A DNA stretch of 51,277 nucleotides from a phage, in the sequence record NC_105513.1, one strand, 5' to 3'. The translations under genes were made by a program, and so were the position numbers. A model generated the notes under the pieces. It was given only the letters and a program-made list of their open reading frames with translations, ran no database searches and was not told the DNA's origin. This document shows positions 32 through 51,277 of the stretch, piece by piece (positions within the stretch are counted from its first letter, which is position 1; every line of letters begins with the position of its first letter).

Positions 32-76
32 ATTATGCCAGGCTTTTACACCTGGCTTTTAACAAAAAGTGCTATT
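32..76 (-). promoter_or_regulatory. box-type promoter (box 57..76, -10 CATAAT 32..37)
   Basis: rc reads AATAGCACTTTTTGTTAAAA-N22-CATAAT; serves gene 50891..51277 across the junction. Confidence 0.6.
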
Positions 77-782
77 TTGCGTTTGCTTCGAAGACTGCGC
101 GAGCAAAACCGCGCGGAGTGAGGGAGCGGATCATCTTTGTGCGAGATGATTTTCCGCCAGTTTTGGCCCAGCCTGGATTATCTTTGTCATTCTCTTTCGG
201 CAGGATTAAAGCGCGCTGAGGAATAACAAATCCGTTTCCAGTCCAAAGGCATGTTTTCTTAAAGTAGCGATCCCGCGCCGGAATAATATCAGGAAAGTCG
301 GGATGTTTATCATCTTCCGGAAGATAGCCAGCATAATCGCACGGATGGAACGTATAATCAGGCTTGCGCCATAACGTTGACAGCTTGCCTACAGGATTCT
401 CTATCATGTACGGAACGCCGAAATAATCAGCAATTTGCGCCGCTATTTTGCAAGTGTCGGCGGCCTCATCCTGGAAAGAGGGATTCTCAAGGCGTTTTTT
501 GGACCAATGGCGAGATCCGCTATTTGCAAGGTCAGTGCACGGCGGAAATGCCATAATGAAATCAGGCTTGCCCCAATTTTCAAGTTTTGCGGTATATTTG
601 AATAGCTCATCAATCCACACATTAACGTAAAAAATATTATCATGGATTATGCGCACTGATTGGTAATCTCCATGATCTGCATCATCGTAATTAAAGCAAA
701 TGCATTTATATCCAGCATCAGCCCAATCTTTAACGGCTTTACCAGATCCATCAAACAAAGAGAATATTAAACCTTTATACAT
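72..782 (-). CDS. DNA (cytosine-5)-methyltransferase-like protein
   Basis: 236 aa; ordered motifs FSLFDGSG (FxGxG AdoMet site), FPPC (PC catalytic Cys), IENPVG (ENV); RBS GAGGTG upstream; stop TAG embedded in promoter box. Confidence 0.55.
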   Translation of the reverse strand: MYKGLIFSLFDGSGKAVKDWADAGYKCICFNYDDADHGDYQSVRIIHDNIFYVNVWIDELFKYTAKLENWGKPDFIMAFPPCTDLANSGSRHWSKKRLENPSFQDEAADTCKIAAQIADYFGVPYMIENPVGKLSTLWRKPDYTFHPCDYAGYLPEDDKHPDFPDIIPARDRYFKKTCLWTGNGFVIPQRALILPKENDKDNPGWAKTGGKSSRTKMIRSLTPRGFARAVFEANAK

Positions 783-791
783 TTCATCACC

Positions 792-1016
792 TCAAAACGG
801 AAAGCATCTAGGGCAGTTCGGATCAAAATTGCAACCACAATCATTAACAATCATGGTTGGATCTGCAAATGCAGCGCCGCATTCATGGTCCATATCCATT
901 TCACCCAACGCATCATCAAGCGTCCTGATTTTATATGCGACCTCAAGCGCGGCCTCTTTATTCAGTCCGGCATCTTCTGCTTTTTGCAGTCGCTCAAAAA
1001 AACCGTCTTGACTCAT
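792..1016 (-). CDS. hypothetical cysteine-rich small protein
   Basis: 74 aa ORF, RBS AAGGAG; C-terminal CGCNFDPNCPRC cluster. Confidence 0.5.
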   Translation of the reverse strand: MSQDGFFERLQKAEDAGLNKEAALEVAYKIRTLDDALGEMDMDHECGAAFADPTMIVNDCGCNFDPNCPRCFPF

Positions 1017-1173: not shown

Positions 1174-1434
1174 TCATACAGCCTTCCAGCTTTCAATAAA
1201 CATGCTGTTTTCTTCCAGAAGTTTAATCAATTCTTCGCGCGTATATTTGCGGATTTTACTACCTGGATGTGAGCCAACAACAAACACACCTTTACCACTT
1301 GTGATGGTTAACTGGTTAATTCCGCAAGATTTATCCATTTTCACGGCGACGCGGTGATGTGCATCAACAGTGTGCATGATGTTAGTGACTTTAGCTTTCA
1401 TTATGCGATCCTCATTGTACTTAGTGTAGGACAT
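1174..1434 (-). CDS. hypothetical protein
   Basis: 86 aa ORF in early leftward block. Confidence 0.5.
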   Translation of the reverse strand: MSYTKYNEDRIMKAKVTNIMHTVDAHHRVAVKMDKSCGINQLTITSGKGVFVVGSHPGSKIRKYTREELIKLLEENSMFIESWKAV

Positions 1435-1439
1435 TATAT

Positions 1440-1673
1440 TTACTTCAAATTCTCGATCTTGTTATTGCCAATTGCAGAATGAACGCAACGCTCTTGCGTC
1501 TCCTTGTCGCCATGAACATCAATATAATAACCAGGTATGACAGTAAAAAACCAATTACCACGCCAGAAGAAATAAAGGCCATGCTTGCTTCCTTTCGCGC
1601 ATTTATTAGCATTTTTAGGTATTGGAAGTCCGTGTACTCTCCGCAATTCTACATTCTTGTTAAAATTTGGCAT
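1440..1673 (-). CDS. hypothetical protein
   Basis: 77 aa ORF, RBS GGAGG 7 nt upstream. Confidence 0.5.
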   Translation of the reverse strand: MPNFNKNVELRRVHGLPIPKNANKCAKGSKHGLYFFWRGNWFFTVIPGYYIDVHGDKETQERCVHSAIGNNKIENLK

Positions 1674-1867
1674 TACACAACCTCCATAAAAGTATTGAAT
1701 CCACGCAGTTTGAAAGCATTGCCATGCTTAACAACGTTCCATGTCAGGCCGGAGTGATACGCAACCATATCCTCAAGATCAATGGTGATGATAGCGCCTT
1801 TCTTAAAGATTCCTTTCTCGTGAGTGGTGTCACGCTGTACAACTTTAACGTCAACCTGTGTTTCCAT
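1673..1867 (-). CDS. hypothetical protein
   Basis: 64 aa ORF preceded by promoter box 1924..1943 and conserved leader GAGGATTTAAAAATG. Confidence 0.5.
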   Translation of the reverse strand: METQVDVKVVQRDTTHEKGIFKKGAIITIDLEDMVAYHSGLTWNVVKHGNAFKLRGFNTFMEVV

Positions 1868-4803: not shown

Positions 4804-5697
4804 ATGTTAAAACTTGCTGACATTAAATTCCCGATCACCTTCGAATCTCGCGGCATTGGTCATTACATTTTTACCGATGAAAAAACATGCCATAAGGTTG
4901 ATATGAATAGCGACAAACTAACCCCATCAACAATGGAGATTGAACACTTTATTGATGCACACAATACGCACTACAACGCACTTAAAGACTATGGCTATGC
5001 AATGCCAGGCTACACATGTTTGCACTACAAGCCATATAAGGGCCAGGTGTTACCAGTGCGCTCACCGGAACGCGCAGAGATTCCGATGGTCAATATGAAA
5101 ACCTGCGACTACAAAAAGCTGTGGTGCTTAAGTCTGGACAATATCAAGTATCCGATCACGTTCCACACGACTGGTAAGTCAACGATTCGCTACACATCGC
5201 GCGACAATGGCGTTTATAGCGATGGTACGAAATCAGGGTTGAAAGTTGATTTCTTTGTCAATGGTCACAACAAGTTCAATCCGCACAATGAAAAGGATAA
5301 GGTGTACTACGTGGAAGATATTACAAAACACTTGTTTGGAGAAACACCATTCGGCGGCGGTAAGACGTCAATTCAACAAATCATTGGCGAGGAGATCCAC
5401 AAGGCAGCCGTTGAAATGAAAGCGCCTGGAGGATGGCGTATTGATAAGAGCGCAATTGTCTATCAAGAAATAGTAACGCAGGGCGCAATTGAAGACATGC
5501 CACTTGCCGCCACGCTAAAAGGCGTCCAAATTGCGGATGGCACATGGTTTGAATTAACGGCAAAACCAAAGACTATCGAGATTCATGATGATGTTGTTAT
5601 TCTTCTGCTTCATTACGGTAGCGCAAAAAACCGTACCGTTGCGGGTGAGATTAGCATCAAGCGCGGAACGATGGTTAAGTGGAATGTCAAAGTGTAA
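4804..5697 (+). CDS. hypothetical protein with internal tandem duplication
   Basis: 297 aa; two homologous segments (LADIKFPITFESRGIGHY... and LDNIKYPITFHTTGKSTI...). Confidence 0.65.
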   Translation: MLKLADIKFPITFESRGIGHYIFTDEKTCHKVDMNSDKLTPSTMEIEHFIDAHNTHYNALKDYGYAMPGYTCLHYKPYKGQVLPVRSPERAEIPMVNMKTCDYKKLWCLSLDNIKYPITFHTTGKSTIRYTSRDNGVYSDGTKSGLKVDFFVNGHNKFNPHNEKDKVYYVEDITKHLFGETPFGGGKTSIQQIIGEEIHKAAVEMKAPGGWRIDKSAIVYQEIVTQGAIEDMPLAATLKGVQIADGTWFELTAKPKTIEIHDDVVILLLHYGSAKNRTVAGEISIKRGTMVKWNVKV

Positions 5698-5740
5698 ATA
5701 GCACGAATTGTTAAAACTCAAATGTGGGGCCAGGTATAAT
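5697..5740 (+). promoter_or_regulatory. box-type promoter (-10 TATAAT 5735..5740)
   Basis: AATAGCACGAATTGTTAAAAC; 21-bp spacer. Confidence 0.6.
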
Positions 5741-5770
5741 GGCCTCACTTTCAACGAAGGAGATAAAACG

Positions 5771-6208
5771 ATGTACATTAGCAAGAAGATGAAATGCGTT
5801 TCCGTTAATTATGGTTGTGCTGGAATGTTCAAGCCTGGCGAAATCTATACGGCGCAAAAACTGAAATCATCAACCGGATCCTTTTACGTGAGCAATAGTA
5901 AAGGGCATCGCATGTTCCTGAACGGTGGCGAAGGCACTAAGGTTATGGCGCACGCTATGGTGATTGCTGAATTTGAGGAAGTGAAAGATGGAACAAATAA
6001 GCGCGTTAAGCACAAGTTTATTGATAATCATGGCGATGCACTTGAGGTATATAAGTTCGGCGATCGCGTGTTTATTGATGGCACATTTGAAGGTGGACGC
6101 AGGCCGGATTTTAGATCGATACTCACCATTGACCAGGTGCGCAAGCTGGCGGATAAGTTAAATGATCTGGCAGATGAAATCGAATACAAGCAAATTCATT
6201 TTAATTGA
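5771..6208 (+). CDS. hypothetical protein
   Basis: 145 aa from MYISKKMK; RBS AAGGAG. Confidence 0.55.
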   Translation: MYISKKMKCVSVNYGCAGMFKPGEIYTAQKLKSSTGSFYVSNSKGHRMFLNGGEGTKVMAHAMVIAEFEEVKDGTNKRVKHKFIDNHGDALEVYKFGDRVFIDGTFEGGRRPDFRSILTIDQVRKLADKLNDLADEIEYKQIHFN

Positions 6209-41684: not shown

Positions 41685-41728
41685 AATAGCATTTTTTGTT
41701 AAACGATGATTTAATGATTGTGTATTAT
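41685..41728 (+). promoter_or_regulatory. box-type promoter (-10 TATTAT 41723..41728)
   Basis: AATAGCATTTTTTGTTAAAC; 21-bp spacer; upstream of helicase gene. Confidence 0.55.
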
Positions 41729-41761
41729 ACACGCCAAATGGCATTACTCAAAGGTTTTAGA

Positions 41762-43801
41762 ATGATTCCAAACATTGAAAAGCAAATATCAGCACTTGGT
41801 GAGGCGGTAATTAAATCCATTCAGGAGCGATTCACTGTTGGCGATATTGTGCCTTACCCTTACCAGTGCGTTGCATACGCTGAGATCGCAAAGCGTATGA
41901 AAAATTATGAGCATCCATTCTTTGTTAAAGCGTCCGTATCGGCTGGCAAAACATTGATGTTTGCAATGGTTGCTCACCAGTGCCGGAAAATGGGCTTGAA
42001 AATGATGGTACTTGCTCGCCAGGCTGAGATTGTGGATCAGGATTCTGAAGAGATAACAAATCTTGGTGTGCCGAACTCCATCTATTGTGCAGGACTGAAG
42101 ACAAAAAGCGCATACTTTCCGATCGTTGTTGGCTCTGAGGGAACTGTAGTTAATGGACTGTTTAAAGCGCTTGGCGACTATGTTCCGCACGTTATCGGGA
42201 TTGACGAGTGTCACCAGGTGGATTGGGAAGACCTTGCCGACGCAATAGAGAAAGACGAATCATTTTTACAAATGACGACGAAGAAAGGCGAAAAAGTACC
42301 AAATCCAGATTATGACATAACTAGCGATAACGAATGCGAAGAGTTTCTGATTGGTGAGGATGGATTGCCAATGGAGGGAACAGGCCGCACACAATACACT
42401 GTCATTATCATGGAAATGATGCGCCGCTGCCGGAAAACATATGGTCATGAACTGCGCATCTTTGGTATGACTGGATCAGAGTTTCGCGGCGTGGTTCCGA
42501 TCCTTGTCGAAGATAAAAAGCAGAAAGGATTCTGGCGCGAACAGGTTACTAATATTGACACCAACTACCTGATCAAATTCGGTTCTGTTGTGCCAACAAA
42601 TTTTGGCGACGTTGGCGATCTAGGGTATGACCTTTCAGAGTTTGAGGCATCCAGTGAGGATGGCGTTGCAGACTTTGACGCTAAAACGCTTCGCAGGATG
42701 GAACAAAAAATTCATGAAGAAGCGACCATGACAAAGCGCATCATGGCGAAAGTTCACGAGATCTGTAAAAACCGTAACGGCGTACTTGTTACATGTGCAG
42801 GAGAAAGGCATTGCAAAGAGGCAGCGGCAGCTTTGCCACCTGGAACGACTTACAGGATCATTACTGGTAAGACTGGCGACAACCAGCGCAAGGAGTGGTT
42901 GAAGGAAGCATACGAGGGGAAGGTAAAATACATCTTCCAGGTTCAGGCGCTAACAACTGGCGTTAACGTGCCGTTTTGGGATACGTCGGTTATATTGCGT
43001 AAGATTGGATCTCTTACGTTGCTGATTCAGCTTTTAGGGCGCGGAATGCGACTACTTAAGAAGTGGCATAAGGAGCAAGGATTCCAGAAAGATGATCATC
43101 TCGTCATGGATTTTTCAGGAACGATGGACGAGCTAGGGGAGCTTTATTTTGATCCGATACTGGAACAGGCGCAGCACCAGAAGCGATTCAGAAATGGTAA
43201 AGATCCGAAGCCTTGTCCTATTTGCGGAACTCTTAACAGCTATTATGCTCGTCGCTGTATGCACGTAGACGAAGACGGCAACAGATGCGAGTGGTTCTTT
43301 AAATTCAGGACATGTGACGATCAGGTTGACCCACGCACTAAAAAGATTATTCAGCGCGGTTGTGGAACGAAAAATGATATTGCGGCCAGGGTATGCAGAC
43401 ATTGCGACATGTCATTGATTGACCCTAACGAGAAGTTAAGCGGAAAGCACTACACAAAAAACGACTGGTTCCAGGTGCAATCTTTCTCGGTTGACATGAC
43501 GAAAAACCAGAAAGGGATAATATTTAATTATGAGCTTTCCGATGGCATAGACACTTTCAGGGCGAGAGAGATATTTTTCCCTGAATCTGAGAGCCAAATT
43601 TGCCGCGCAAAATGGCGAAGCGTTGCTCTTAAGCACATACCAGATCGCCGCGTTGCTGGCATGGTGGCGAGCTATCGTAATGCACGAAAAATAATGCAAT
43701 ATGTTAATCACATTATGCCGCCATCGCGTGTGACTCACCGCAAGACTAGCAAGGGCGAAGATAATTTGTACAAGAAGGAATTTAATTATGGCAATGACTG
43801 A
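41762..43801 (+). CDS. ATP-dependent helicase (superfamily 2) with C-terminal zinc fingers
   Basis: 679 aa from MIPNIEKQ; Walker A SAGKTLMF, DECH box IGIDECHQV; C-terminal CPICG...C...C clusters. Confidence 0.8.
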   Translation: MIPNIEKQISALGEAVIKSIQERFTVGDIVPYPYQCVAYAEIAKRMKNYEHPFFVKASVSAGKTLMFAMVAHQCRKMGLKMMVLARQAEIVDQDSEEITNLGVPNSIYCAGLKTKSAYFPIVVGSEGTVVNGLFKALGDYVPHVIGIDECHQVDWEDLADAIEKDESFLQMTTKKGEKVPNPDYDITSDNECEEFLIGEDGLPMEGTGRTQYTVIIMEMMRRCRKTYGHELRIFGMTGSEFRGVVPILVEDKKQKGFWREQVTNIDTNYLIKFGSVVPTNFGDVGDLGYDLSEFEASSEDGVADFDAKTLRRMEQKIHEEATMTKRIMAKVHEICKNRNGVLVTCAGERHCKEAAAALPPGTTYRIITGKTGDNQRKEWLKEAYEGKVKYIFQVQALTTGVNVPFWDTSVILRKIGSLTLLIQLLGRGMRLLKKWHKEQGFQKDDHLVMDFSGTMDELGELYFDPILEQAQHQKRFRNGKDPKPCPICGTLNSYYARRCMHVDEDGNRCEWFFKFRTCDDQVDPRTKKIIQRGCGTKNDIAARVCRHCDMSLIDPNEKLSGKHYTKNDWFQVQSFSVDMTKNQKGIIFNYELSDGIDTFRAREIFFPESESQICRAKWRSVALKHIPDRRVAGMVASYRNARKIMQYVNHIMPPSRVTHRKTSKGEDNLYKKEFNYGND

Positions 43802-44207
43802 TAAAGGCGATTATCTGGAGTTTTACGAAAGAGATCCGACAGATACTCTGAAAGAGGAATCGCACCAGATCGGGGCGTTTCAATGGGTAACTTATGCTCA
43901 TCCTGAATTACTGGCATGGCATACGAAAAACGAGGGCGATAAGGGAATCGCCACCGCAATGATGGATCAGCAAGCCGGACTAGTTAAGGGTGTAAGTGAT
44001 TTTATCATCCTGATTGGATTAAAAGGCCGTTACCCGTTCGCGGCAATAGAGATGAAGCGCGTCAATAAGTCCGGCAAGGGGAAGGCTTCACCAGTCAGCA
44101 AGGATCAAAAAGCCTTCTTGCGCCGTGTGCGTGAGCTTGGCGGATTCGCTGCCGTAACATACGGATATAAGCAATTCATGATCGCTGTAGAATACATGAT
44201 GAAATAG
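43788..44207 (+). CDS. putative VRR-NUC domain nuclease
   Basis: 139 aa; GVSDFIILIG ... AAIEMKR resembles PD-(D/E)XK VRR-NUC core; adjacent to helicase. Confidence 0.5.
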   Translation: MAMTDKGDYLEFYERDPTDTLKEESHQIGAFQWVTYAHPELLAWHTKNEGDKGIATAMMDQQAGLVKGVSDFIILIGLKGRYPFAAIEMKRVNKSGKGKASPVSKDQKAFLRRVRELGGFAAVTYGYKQFMIAVEYMMK

Positions 44208-44281: not shown

Positions 44282-44983
44282 ATGAGTAAAGAAACTGAAG
44301 TGACATTTGAACAAATAGAACGAGAAACATTCATTGGCAATGCTCTTGCTACTGGAGGCCATTACCAGGCCGTTAAACCAAATCAATATTATAAAGTCAC
44401 TGGCAACCGCTATAACGGCAGCAATACGCCGGACGTTGTGCGAGATTTGTGGTCTACGCCGTCTGAGCTTGTCGCATGGATGGAAATCGAATACGGTGAT
44501 TATGACATCGACGCGGCGGCAAGCAAAGAAAATGCTGTATGTGAAAAATTCTACAGCAAGGAAACAAATTGCTTAAAGCGTTGGTGGGGTAGTAATAAGC
44601 ATATATGGCTGAATCCGCCGTACAGCAATATAACGCCTTTCGTTAAGAAAGCGATTGAGCAAATGGAGCACAATAACCAGATCGACATTCTGTTACCTTG
44701 CGACACATCGACAGGATGGTTTTATGAGGCACAGCAGAAAGCAGCGGAAATCATCTGGATCACTGGCGAAGTTTACCAGGAGGGCGGAACAGAATATTCC
44801 CGAACAGGACGCCTTGCGTTTACCTCGGCCCTTACAGGTAAACCAGTACAGGGAAACAACAAAGGCAGCGTTATTTTCATCATGCGAGAACTGAAAGAAG
44901 GTGAGAAGCAGAAAACGCGATACGTTAAAATCAGCGACATTTGCCCTTCGGTGGCAGACCGTCGCGCACGGAAACGGAGCTAA
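44282..44983 (+). CDS. dam: DNA N6-adenine methyltransferase (phage Dam-like)
   Basis: 233 aa; YDIDAAAS and NPPY catalytic motifs. Confidence 0.8.
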   Translation: MSKETEVTFEQIERETFIGNALATGGHYQAVKPNQYYKVTGNRYNGSNTPDVVRDLWSTPSELVAWMEIEYGDYDIDAAASKENAVCEKFYSKETNCLKRWWGSNKHIWLNPPYSNITPFVKKAIEQMEHNNQIDILLPCDTSTGWFYEAQQKAAEIIWITGEVYQEGGTEYSRTGRLAFTSALTGKPVQGNNKGSVIFIMRELKEGEKQKTRYVKISDICPSVADRRARKRS

Positions 44984-49021: not shown

Positions 49022-50605
49022 TTACCCCAGCAATGTTGGATTTACAAAAACAACGCCATTAATCACACAAATATAATTTCTTTCTTCAAGCATCGGCAGC
49101 AGTTGCGTTTCCATACGCTTCATTACGCCAGCCTGGCCAACAAACGGCTTAACTTTTCGTGCAGCCTCATATATGGCGCGCACATTCAAGATCCCCTTGT
49201 TAGCCTTACCGTGTCGAGTGATGATCTCGATTAGTTTACCCATTTCAGCATCATCACCAGCATAGCCAGAAGCGTTGGCGGCGCTAATGTATGTTTTGCT
49301 CAACTCGCTAAACATCAGCAGTGCTTCCTGAACGGTTTCAACCTCAATCTCTTTCGACTTTTGAGGGTATCCGCCAGGATTAAACCAATTGCGGATAGTG
49401 TGCAAAACCGAAGCAATCCTGATCACCTGCTTATCCATTTTGCCAAGCGCACCGCGCAGCATTGTATGCGAATACTTTCCGCCATCGGCAAGGTGCGGTT
49501 CCATCTCCTGACGAGCCATGTTAAGAACTCGCATTGCGGATTTGCTGATCTTAAGCTGGATGTTCGATTCACTCATGATGTTATGGATCAGCTTGAAATA
49601 TTGGCTTTTCAGTTCTCCATCAACAGGTTCATAAGTAGAATCACCGTTATCATCAACAAACTTTCTACGGCCTAAAAATGATTCCTCACGCACAAGCAAA
49701 TAACGCTCACTTACACCGATACCGCGCGATCCTGCATCCATGATGGCATTGATTGTTTCATCCTGGGCAATTACCGCCATACAGCCAAGAGCTTTAAAAC
49801 TCATATTGTTGTCAGCGTTTGCGCGAGCTATAGAAACATGACCGTGATCCCATGCTTTTAATACAAGTTCGCTGTTGGTTTTACGTTCGCTATTGGCATA
49901 TGTCAGACCTAAAAGGCTGTTAATACTTGTTGCCTCGTCTGAAATCACAGCAAAGTTACCCTGGCGATTGTTGATTCTTGCAAGTCCTTCCGGCGTTGTG
50001 TCGGACACAGGGAAAACGATGTCACACATCTTTTCCAGTTTTTCTTCCAGATCTTCTTTCTCCTGGTACAGAGATTCCATATCAGCGCCGGAGCGCTCGC
50101 TTTTCATCTCTTTTGCAAGACCTGCCAACTTTGCCTGAATCTTTTTTCTTTCCTTCTTTCGCTGTTCATTAATTCTTTCCACTTCAGCAACCATAGGAGC
50201 AAGTGCCAGGCTGTTAACGGCAGATTTACCAGTTGATGGAGGCTGGCTTGTGACAACGTAAAGAGCGGTTGGTTGATCCGTTCCGTGATACTCAACCGTG
50301 AAGCGTCCAAGCATTGCAGCAGACACGCAGCCGATAAAATGCATATATGCCGATGATTCAGGGAACTGAACTGATCGAGCAATGTTGCGCGCCAACTTAC
50401 CAACAACATCAATATCATTGCCAAGAGAAATTACAGGGTAGCGATCGTTTCCGTTATTAACATCATTAACCTCACCCCAAAAGCTGGACGATTGACGGTA
50501 TCCGTTTGCCTGAATGGACACGCGCACAGGAGACAATCCTTGTGCATCAGCTAATTCGATAATTTGTTTTGGTGTTAGTTTATTGGTTTCAAACGAAAAA
50601 TTCAT
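49022..50605 (-). CDS. putative P-loop ATPase (replication-associated?)
   Basis: 527 aa from MNFSFETNK (RBS AAGGAG); deviant Walker A SQPPSTGKS and Walker B-like FAVISDEA. Confidence 0.55.
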   Translation of the reverse strand: MNFSFETNKLTPKQIIELADAQGLSPVRVSIQANGYRQSSSFWGEVNDVNNGNDRYPVISLGNDIDVVGKLARNIARSVQFPESSAYMHFIGCVSAAMLGRFTVEYHGTDQPTALYVVTSQPPSTGKSAVNSLALAPMVAEVERINEQRKKERKKIQAKLAGLAKEMKSERSGADMESLYQEKEDLEEKLEKMCDIVFPVSDTTPEGLARINNRQGNFAVISDEATSINSLLGLTYANSERKTNSELVLKAWDHGHVSIARANADNNMSFKALGCMAVIAQDETINAIMDAGSRGIGVSERYLLVREESFLGRRKFVDDNGDSTYEPVDGELKSQYFKLIHNIMSESNIQLKISKSAMRVLNMARQEMEPHLADGGKYSHTMLRGALGKMDKQVIRIASVLHTIRNWFNPGGYPQKSKEIEVETVQEALLMFSELSKTYISAANASGYAGDDAEMGKLIEIITRHGKANKGILNVRAIYEAARKVKPFVGQAGVMKRMETQLLPMLEERNYICVINGVVFVNPTLLG

Positions 50606-50632
50606 TGGTGATAACTCCTTTTTGATGCGGCA

Positions 50633-50677
50633 ATAATACCGCACCAATGCTACCCGCATTTAACAAAAAATGCTATT
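50633..50677 (-). promoter_or_regulatory. box-type promoter (box 50659..50677, -10 TATTAT)
   Basis: 22-bp spacer; leader CATCAAAAAGGAG; upstream of ATPase gene. Confidence 0.6.
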
Positions 50678-50894
50678 TGATCCGCTCTATGCTAACTAAG
50701 ATTTTTTCTGGTTCCTTTGCACTATGGCAATGCGCGGTTACAGAATCAACAAAATCAAAGTAAAGTGATTTGTGATATGAGAATCCAATCAGCCACCCAA
50801 CCATCGTTTTCTTTATTGGCCTGACTATATCGCCAGGCTTAAAGGTTTTTGTTGCCGAATAAGTCACCTTATAGCGATATTCAGTCTTGATCAC
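50673..50894 (-). CDS. hypothetical protein
   Basis: 73 aa ORF; stop TAG embedded in promoter box. Confidence 0.5.
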   Translation of the reverse strand: MIKTEYRYKVTYSATKTFKPGDIVRPIKKTMVGWLIGFSYHKSLYFDFVDSVTAHCHSAKEPEKILVSIERIK

Positions 50895-51277
50895 TTATAC
50901 ATAGCCTCAAACAAATGACAGCCACCAGCGGAAAATCCTACTTCTTCGCGGTATAGCGTCCAGCGGTCGCCAGCTTCATCAAAAACATAACCAGCAACAG
51001 CACCAAGAGCGCGACCTTGCTCAATCTGGTAACGCTTTCCTTCTTTGAAATGTTTTTTGCACGGGATCTTGTGATCTACAAAGGTGCATTTAATTGTTTT
51101 TGTCTTGATATGACGATAGTCAGACTCAACAGCGTTTTGCCACTTGCTACCCTTTGTAATGCTCTTTACCTGGAATTGCTCCAACTCGATCACATCATCG
51201 CTACCAGCAATTTTTTCGTATACAACTTTATAACGACCGTTCATCAAAACGTTGGTTTTATTGCAGATAACTTTCAT
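50891..51277 (-). CDS. hypothetical protein
   Basis: 128 aa; ATG is the last 3 bases of the window; its RBS AGGAG and promoter lie at window positions 1..76. Confidence 0.55.
   Translation of the reverse strand: MKVICNKTNVLMNGRYKVVYEKIAGSDDVIELEQFQVKSITKGSKWQNAVESDYRHIKTKTIKCTFVDHKIPCKKHFKEGKRYQIEQGRALGAVAGYVFDEAGDRWTLYREEVGFSAGGCHLFEAMYK

Follow-up and report, generated by a model that had tools for sequence, protein, structure and literature searches.

The 51,277-nucleotide phage sequence NC_105513.1, analyzed here in full and referred to as the window, carries a minus-strand gene for a 236-residue protein close to its first base. We conclude that this gene, dcm, very probably codes for an active S-adenosylmethionine (AdoMet)-dependent DNA cytosine-5 methyltransferase (C5-MTase) of a compact phage 'Dcm-like' family (PHROG 757), matching the Dcm protein of phage K42 in length and catalytic numbering. 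Taken as a whole, this explanation fits the evidence best. Its parts are held with different degrees of confidence. By analogy with the K42 enzyme, we are highly confident that the window protein would act as a DNA 5-methylcytosine (m5C or 5mC) methyltransferase. CCWGG as its exact specificity, again by analogy, is probable with considerable room for another site, and we regard anti-restriction as the selected function as an even proposition.

Family, fold and catalytic residues

The window protein belongs to a large family of phage proteins of uniform size. It matches PHROG 757, 'DNA methyltransferase', over its full length (E = 7.8e-86; its residues 2-235 align with profile positions 13-219 of 247), and the conserved DHGxY, PPC, ENP, GGKS and SLTPRG motifs of this family are all present. 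A hidden Markov model search had been proposed as a check in an earlier, sequence-only reading of this DNA (the initial annotation); such a search placed the protein in this methyltransferase family. The sequence is 100% identical to the protein of phage JLBYU09 and 97% identical (230/236) to the 'Dcm-like C5 cytosine methyltransferase' of KarlJaspers Bas06. The six substitutions relative to the Bas06 protein are S94A, A115S, Q116H, Q189P, L192T and N198D, and three of them fall in the variable recognition loop region. We found 3339 homologues in the protein collection, nearly all of 227-260 residues. A homologue is encoded in 1503 phage records (full-length in 1469), which come mostly from Escherichia and Klebsiella phages and span several families. 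Three homologues that are 56-57% identical to the window protein (P0102, P0108 and P0112) pass the threshold of the general C5-MTase family PF00145: their scores of 24.7-28.5 bits, where the cut-off is 22, come from motifs I-IV alone.

Structure prediction points to the same enzyme class. An AlphaFold2 model built from the family alignment reached a predicted local distance difference test score (pLDDT) of 91.5 and a predicted template modeling score (pTM) of 0.89, with weak spots in the loop past the PC motif and at residues around 200-210. The model has a class I Rossmann-like methyltransferase fold in the C5-MTase arrangement. The best 50 Foldseek matches in the PDB were all chains of the DNMT3 family (DNMT3A/3B/3C), at E values of about 4e-7 and weaker. 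The window protein is therefore a cytosine-5 methyltransferase-fold protein, and its catalytic Cys and Glu are in place.

We examined the motifs in an alignment of 33 homologues, counted them in 120 cluster representatives, and compared them with a second alignment, in which E. coli Dcm is joined by six classical C5-MTases from phages (302-472 residues). The classical enzymes show textbook motifs I, IV (GFPCQ), VI (ENV), VIII (QxRxR), IX (RRLTPxECxRLxGFP) and X (QxYKQxGNSV). In the phage family, G12, S13, G14, P81, C82, E128, N129 and P130 are invariant in 33/33 homologues. Among the representatives, F.G.G occurs in 115, PPC in 118 and ENP in all 120. This conservation indicates that the motifs are not chance matches. 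Aligning the family to the classical enzymes with hhalign recovered motifs I-IV (E = 1.2e-4) and placed P81-C82 on GFPCQ, with T83 rather than Gln as the next residue. Motifs VI and VIII were not aligned to the classical enzymes by this sequence method. The position of motif VI comes instead from strand order and a published structural superposition: E128-N129 lie at the end of strand 125-130 and are followed by an invariant Pro and then Val. The initial annotation had described FxGxG and PC motifs in canonical order, with PPCT in place of PCQ, and this description holds (F10-D-G12-S-G14, P80-P81-C82-T83, E128-N129). The ENV motif it had named is present in order as E128-N129, but the literal sequence is ENPV, and ENP is what the family conserves. 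A further feature of the phage family is an invariant DHGxY insertion that follows strand 2.

The two halves of the protein differ in how they compare with classical enzymes. The spacing between C82 and E128 is 46 residues and that between E128 and K175 is 47, compared with 47 and 50 in E. coli Dcm, so the catalytic core is full-sized. From K175 to R219 of motif IX there are about 43 residues, whereas classical enzymes have about 75-130. The small size of the protein comes from a recognition segment of only ~40 residues and a chain that ends right after motif IX. Thus, the view that it is much shorter than typical C5-MTases (236 residues, against 302-472 in the comparison alignment) and has little room for target recognition proved correct, with the missing end past motif IX as a second source of the size difference. 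A short recognition segment also fits with DNMT3 enzymes as the best structural match. When the C-terminal half was used alone, the best profile alignment paired T215-R228 (TKMIRSLTPRGFAR) with E. coli Dcm 396-409 (QHRPRRLTPRECAR), which is motif IX, at E = 0.002-0.008.

The recognition segment, about 38-43 residues long, is the most variable stretch of the family alignment. Its ten-residue blocks 191-200 and 201-210 have pLDDT values of 83 and 66, respectively. We distinguished two loop types, DNPGW and GYSxQH. Among the 120 representatives, (K/S)DNPGW is found in 78, including the window protein, and GYSxQ(H/Y) in 36. Loop type partly co-varies with the residues past the catalytic Cys (ANSG or AVSG) and past ENP (VGK or VSV). 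The two types could reflect different specificities.

Probable activity and target of the phage enzyme

The phage K42 orthologue has been characterized experimentally by Wang et al. (bioRxiv 10.1101/2023.08.16.553469; published as Cell Rep 43:114857 (2024), according to citing papers). Escapers of retron Ec86 were isolated from phage KarlJaspers strain Hzau42 (K42), whose genome is 95.4% identical to Bas06, and 4/4 of them disrupt a 711-bp dcm gene through a 2,262-bp deletion, a deletion of G451 or, in two cases, replacement of C by A 9 bp ahead of the start (10.1101/2023.08.16.553469). Escaper phages with dcm deleted are viable, and toxicity of Dcm expression is confined to cells with Ec86 (10.1101/2023.08.16.553469). 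By liquid chromatography coupled to mass spectrometry (LC-MS), 5mC on the multicopy single-stranded DNA (msDNA) of the retron was high with wild-type Dcm and low with the C82A/E128A/K175A/K176A mutant or an empty vector; K175 and K176 were named as substrate-binding residues (10.1101/2023.08.16.553469). Ec86 defence was lost when either C of the stem-loop CCTGG in the msDNA was mutated, and 34/35 of the Ec86-sensitive phages encode Dcm (10.1101/2023.08.16.553469). The Ec86 experiments were done in the dcm-positive strain MG1655, where control msDNA was still low in 5mC (10.1101/2023.08.16.553469).

The window protein keeps C82, E128, K175 and K176 at the K42 numbering. Position 451 of the window gene is a G, and the plus-strand base at -9 (position 791) is a C inside the GAGG ribosome-binding sequence, corresponding to the sites of the escaper mutations. 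Judged by sequence, we take the window dcm to be the same gene as K42 dcm. The finding is in this sense already known. Small 'Dcm-like' genes of this kind are common in T1-like coliphages. Many GenBank phage records annotate the gene, under names such as 'Dcm-like C5 cytosine methyltransferase', 'DNA methyltransferase' and 'site-specific DNA methylase', and a near-identical copy has been characterized as an active m5C methyltransferase and a trigger of Ec86 (Eco1), which limits the discovery value of the window gene. Retron Ec86, native to E. coli BL21, is expected to act against the phage of the window, which in turn should be able to escape it by loss of dcm. About 1500 sequenced phages keep dcm despite its cost as a defence trigger.

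Several observations weigh against an active, Dcm-like enzyme. Neither Pfam nor NCBIfam gave the window protein a match, even at E <= 10. It falls below the PF00145 gathering score, and with no match of its own it is tied to that family only through the three passing homologues and the fold. It resembles C5-MTases of known structure only marginally: against PDB sequences, phmmer and profile searches returned E values of about 0.3-1, all to C5-MTases, with DNMT3B and M.HaeIII as the sole marginal matches and the DNMT3 alignments spanning motifs I-IV. The motif VIII region lacks QxRxR and instead contains Y173-x-K175-K176-T177 before strand 177-182; K175-K176 may be its counterpart, judging from the published superposition with DNMT3A. 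The motif IX Glu that is invariant in the classical alignment is an invariant Gly in the phage family. The chain stops at residue 236, seven residues past motif IX, and canonical motif X is absent, with N234 alone invariant. Our identity figure refers to the Bas06 orthologue rather than to K42 Dcm, and we infer the matches to the K42 escaper sites from the published positions. The CCWGG target of the K42 enzyme was taken from E. coli Dcm by analogy and not mapped (10.1101/2023.08.16.553469), and the phage enzyme and host Dcm may not share the same site, substrate form or level of activity. Finally, the presence of methyltransferase genes showed no simple relation to restriction resistance in the Drexlerviridae of the BASEL study.

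Some of these points are what would be expected of a catalytically inactive protein that uses a methyltransferase fold to bind DNA or another partner, an alternative raised in the initial annotation. Such a protein would account for the absence of Pfam and NCBIfam matches and for the missing motif VIII arginines, motif IX Glu and motif X. The invariance of Cys82, Glu128 and the AdoMet loop in the 33 aligned homologues, in a family with thousands of members, argues against it. The alternative is contradicted by the K42 enzyme, which has the same length and catalytic numbering and raises 5mC on msDNA while its active-site mutant does not. We consider inactivity highly improbable.

The same data bear on what the enzyme transfers and to which nucleic acid. 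An enzyme that transfers a non-methyl group, or that makes the precursor of a hypermodified cytosine (compare the C5-carboxymethyltransferases), is also very improbable. LC-MS detected 5mC itself for the orthologue, against a 5mC standard, and Pfam and PHROG scans of the neighbouring genes identified no carboxy-SAM synthase-like or other modification gene. A Dnmt2-type RNA (tRNA) m5C methyltransferase is hardly credible. DNA enzymes score higher (14.0 for DNMT3B and 12.1 for 3g7u, a putative DNA modification methyltransferase encoded by a prophage), the orthologue was reported to act on a DNA substrate, the msDNA stem-loop, and the window contains no tRNA genes and no Rfam matches.

Site counts in the whole window were compared with expectations from a maximal-order Markov model. 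CCWGG occurs 122 times versus 123 expected, and GATC is also at expectation. CCSGG was observed once versus 14.6 expected, and GGCC is at 0.58 of expectation. Many 6-bp palindromes are strongly depleted, among them AAGCTT (0 observed/16.6 expected), GATATC (0/10.8), AGGCCT (0/10.4), GCATGC (0/8.6), GAATTC (1/15.1), GGCGCC (1/19.9) and TCCGGA (3/21.8). This looks like classical restriction-site avoidance that spares Dam and Dcm sites. CCWGG and GATC as protected sites fit the pattern, though the evidence is circumstantial, as host Dcm and Dam would yield the same one; in most E. coli hosts, CCWGG is already protected by host Dcm. We rejected an apparent 2.4-fold enrichment of CCWGG (122 versus 50 in dinucleotide shuffles) because it disappears under the Markov model.

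An active C5-MTase whose specificity or substrate is unlike that of E. coli Dcm is possible but rather unlikely. It might recognize a shorter or relaxed site, methylate the outer C of CCWGG, or prefer hairpin or single-stranded DNA such as msDNA. The ~40-residue recognition segment has no detectable similarity to the Dcm recognition domain, since hhalign aligned motifs IV and IX only; against the single E. coli Dcm sequence, the family aligned over 25 columns around motif IV only, with a probability of 1.2%. When E. coli Dcm was used as a tblastn query, no Drexlerviridae phage appeared among the 30 evenly stepped matches listed, out of 363 records. The two loop types also favour differing specificities. 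Since control msDNA in dcm-positive MG1655 carried little 5mC and only the phage enzyme raised the level, some difference from host Dcm must exist, whether in the amount of the phage enzyme, its substrate form or its site. However, higher expression of the phage enzyme alone could account for this contrast, and mutation of either C of the msDNA CCTGG abolished Ec86 defence. The lack of CCWGG avoidance, together with the near-absence of CCSGG, fits CCWGG protection and not protection of CCNGG.

A related proposal, which we regard as unlikely, is that the minimal architecture itself (a DNMT3-sized loop, with neither a canonical motif X nor the motif IX Glu) sets the phage enzyme apart. Its site, target cytosine or substrate form might then be unlike that of host Dcm, for example through action on hairpin or single-stranded DNA or as a dimer, with the DNPGW and GYSxQH loops encoding different specificities. 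If true, this would account for Ec86 msDNA being methylated, and the retron activated, by the phage enzyme alone in dcm-positive K-12. On balance, we favour a Dcm-like enzyme with CCWGG as its probable site.

The chemistry of C5-MTases has been established for M.HhaI, and we model the mechanism of the phage enzyme on that paradigm. The FDGSG loop would bind AdoMet, and the target cytosine would be flipped out of the helix. Cys82 is predicted to attack C6 while Glu128 protonates N3. Methyl transfer to C5 would be followed by beta-elimination, which would free the enzyme. In an infected cell, the enzyme would methylate phage, host and other DNA. The presumed benefit is that CCWGG-type (EcoRII-type) restriction would be blocked in dcm-negative hosts. 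The cost, demonstrated for the orthologue, would be that methylated CCTGG in Ec86 (Eco1) msDNA activates an abortive-infection system.

Gene coordinates, neighbours and the companion Dam gene

The coordinates of dcm and of the other features discussed here are collected in Table 1. The initial annotation had placed a 236-codon open reading frame (ORF) at the position given there, and our analysis agrees: on the minus strand, the ATG at 782 is the earliest start past an in-frame stop, so that 236 residues is the maximum length of the ORF. The GAGG Shine-Dalgarno sequence overlaps the TGA stop of a 74-residue ORF directly upstream (792..1016).

Table 1. Features of the window. Positions are those of the window; residue numbers refer to the dcm product.
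Feature	Position	Strand	Remarks
dcm, predicted compact cytosine-5 DNA methyltransferase, 236 aa	72..782	minus	Stop codon included
Shine-Dalgarno GAGG	790..793	minus	-11 to -8 of dcm; read from sequence
Motif I, F10-D-G12-S-G14 (FxGxG, predicted AdoMet-binding loop after strand 1)	741..755	minus	F10 nearly invariant; hhalign to classical C5-MTases, HMMER to DNMT3B
Motif IV, P80-P81-C82 (predicted nucleophile Cys82, PPCT for PCQ)	537..545	minus	Reverse complement CCG CCG TGC
Motif VI counterpart, E128-N129-P130-V131	390..401	minus	Reverse complement GAG AAT CCT GTA
K175-K176 at the motif VIII place	255..260	minus	Family consensus YxKKT; K175 invariant
Short putative target-recognition segment, residues 181-218	129..242	minus	Includes low-confidence variable loop around 196-208
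Motif IX, R219-S-L-T-P-R-G225-F-A-R-A229	96..128	minus	R219, S220, T222, P223, R224 and G225 invariant
7-bp GC-rich hairpin (GCCAGG..CCTGGC)	37..56		In 71-nt spacer between dcm and next gene
T1-type Dam (N6-adenine DNA methyltransferase) gene	44282..44983	+	Pfam PF05869 Dam, E = 6.1e-61, 205 bits

The first 3 kb of the window are 92-99.9% identical to the Hanrivervirus phages pSf-1, JakobBernoulli (Bas07), KarlJaspers (Bas06) and JLBYU09. The phage of the window is a Hanrivervirus-type T1-like phage (Drexlerviridae, Tempevirinae). We found that dcm lies inside a leftward gene cluster. The last base of the window is the first of a minus-strand ORF (50891..51277) that is 99% identical to the gene directly downstream of dcm in JakobBernoulli. 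The window is thus a circular permutation of the genome, cut 71 nt past dcm; the JLBYU09 record begins at window position 71. Since the downstream neighbour is found at the other end of the window, the earlier placement of dcm at the end of an early block was an artefact of the cut. Past dcm, the leftward cluster continues with two small ORFs and then a DUF3987 helicase-like gene at 49022..50659. Besides this DUF3987 helicase-like protein, the neighbours of dcm encode a Gp54-family protein and small proteins whose function is unknown.

No nuclease gene adjoins dcm among the neighbouring genes covered by the Pfam and PHROG scans. Because no gene for a cognate restriction endonuclease adjoins dcm, its product is an orphan methyltransferase. 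We also saw no vsr partner adjoining dcm. The hairpin in the downstream spacer has a predicted RNA folding energy of -17.7 kcal/mol (z = -3.0) and carries one CCWGG in each arm of its stem, at 38-42 and 51-55. It is followed by TTTT on the plus strand and has no U-run on the dcm strand, and a terminator scan downstream of dcm gave nothing convincing.

The small-gene cluster upstream of dcm is a mosaic. The closest relatives cover only 76-92% of the first 3 kb, in two or three aligned pieces. A DUF7274 ORF lies at 1440..1673 of the window, and the corresponding place in JakobBernoulli holds a 'putative homing endonuclease' (about window 1400..1700 versus 5472..5855). Also part of the leftward cluster, ~0.9 kb upstream of dcm, is a 64-residue ORF (1673..1867, minus strand) that matches PF25180, 'Phage antiviral trigger protein Gp54', along its entire length (E = 1.5e-37). 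A BASEL phage's Gp54 has been reported to set off the CapRel(SJ46) defence; in that case, the accessory cluster with dcm would carry two known defence triggers.

Twenty records labeled 'Campylobacter phage' (host Campylobacter jejuni) show DNA-level matches to the dcm region, and the protein is encoded in 39. These labels are odd for an enterobacterial phage lineage and suggest mislabeling, contamination or a propagation artefact.

The initial annotation had paired dcm with a Dam-like gene at 44282 and proposed that the phage carries two DNA methylation activities. The match of that gene to PF05869 confirms it as a T1-type Dam, so genes for both an adenine and a cytosine methyltransferase are present. 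The phage DNA is expected to carry both N6-methyladenine (m6A) and m5C. Directly upstream of dam is a gene with a VRR-NUC nuclease domain (43788..44207, plus strand; PF08774, E = 1e-9), which comes just after a 701-residue helicase-like ORF (41696..43801).

Comparison with known methyltransferases

We compared the phage protein with four known systems. It shares motifs I, IV, VI (E-N) and IX, in the same order, with the PF00145 enzymes M.HhaI and M.HaeIII. It differs from them in having PPCT for PCQ, ENP for ENV and YxKKT for QxRxR, in the replacement of the motif IX Glu by Gly, and in the absence of a motif X. It is also ~90 residues shorter and an orphan.

E. coli Dcm and M.EcoRII resemble the phage enzyme in chemistry and in the reported target site, and motifs IV and IX can be aligned. 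Unlike the phage enzyme, E. coli Dcm has 472 residues, an N-terminal extension, ~120 residues between motifs VIII and IX, and a motif X. Because no homology to E. coli Dcm extends beyond short motifs, the sequences indicate that 'Dcm-like' should be read as a statement about function and fold, not orthology.

DNMT3 enzymes have an unusually short target-recognition region, as does the phage protein. Identity between the window protein and the catalytic domains of DNMT3A and DNMT3B is only 14-17%. DNMT3 enzymes differ from the phage protein in their recognition of CpG, their DNMT3L-containing oligomers and their regulatory domains. They also keep motifs VIII-X, whereas the phage protein stops past motif IX.

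The window gene and that of phage K42 Dcm share a length of 711 bp, a product of 236 residues and a phage genus, along with the C82/E128/K175/K176 set, the G at 451 and the C at -9.

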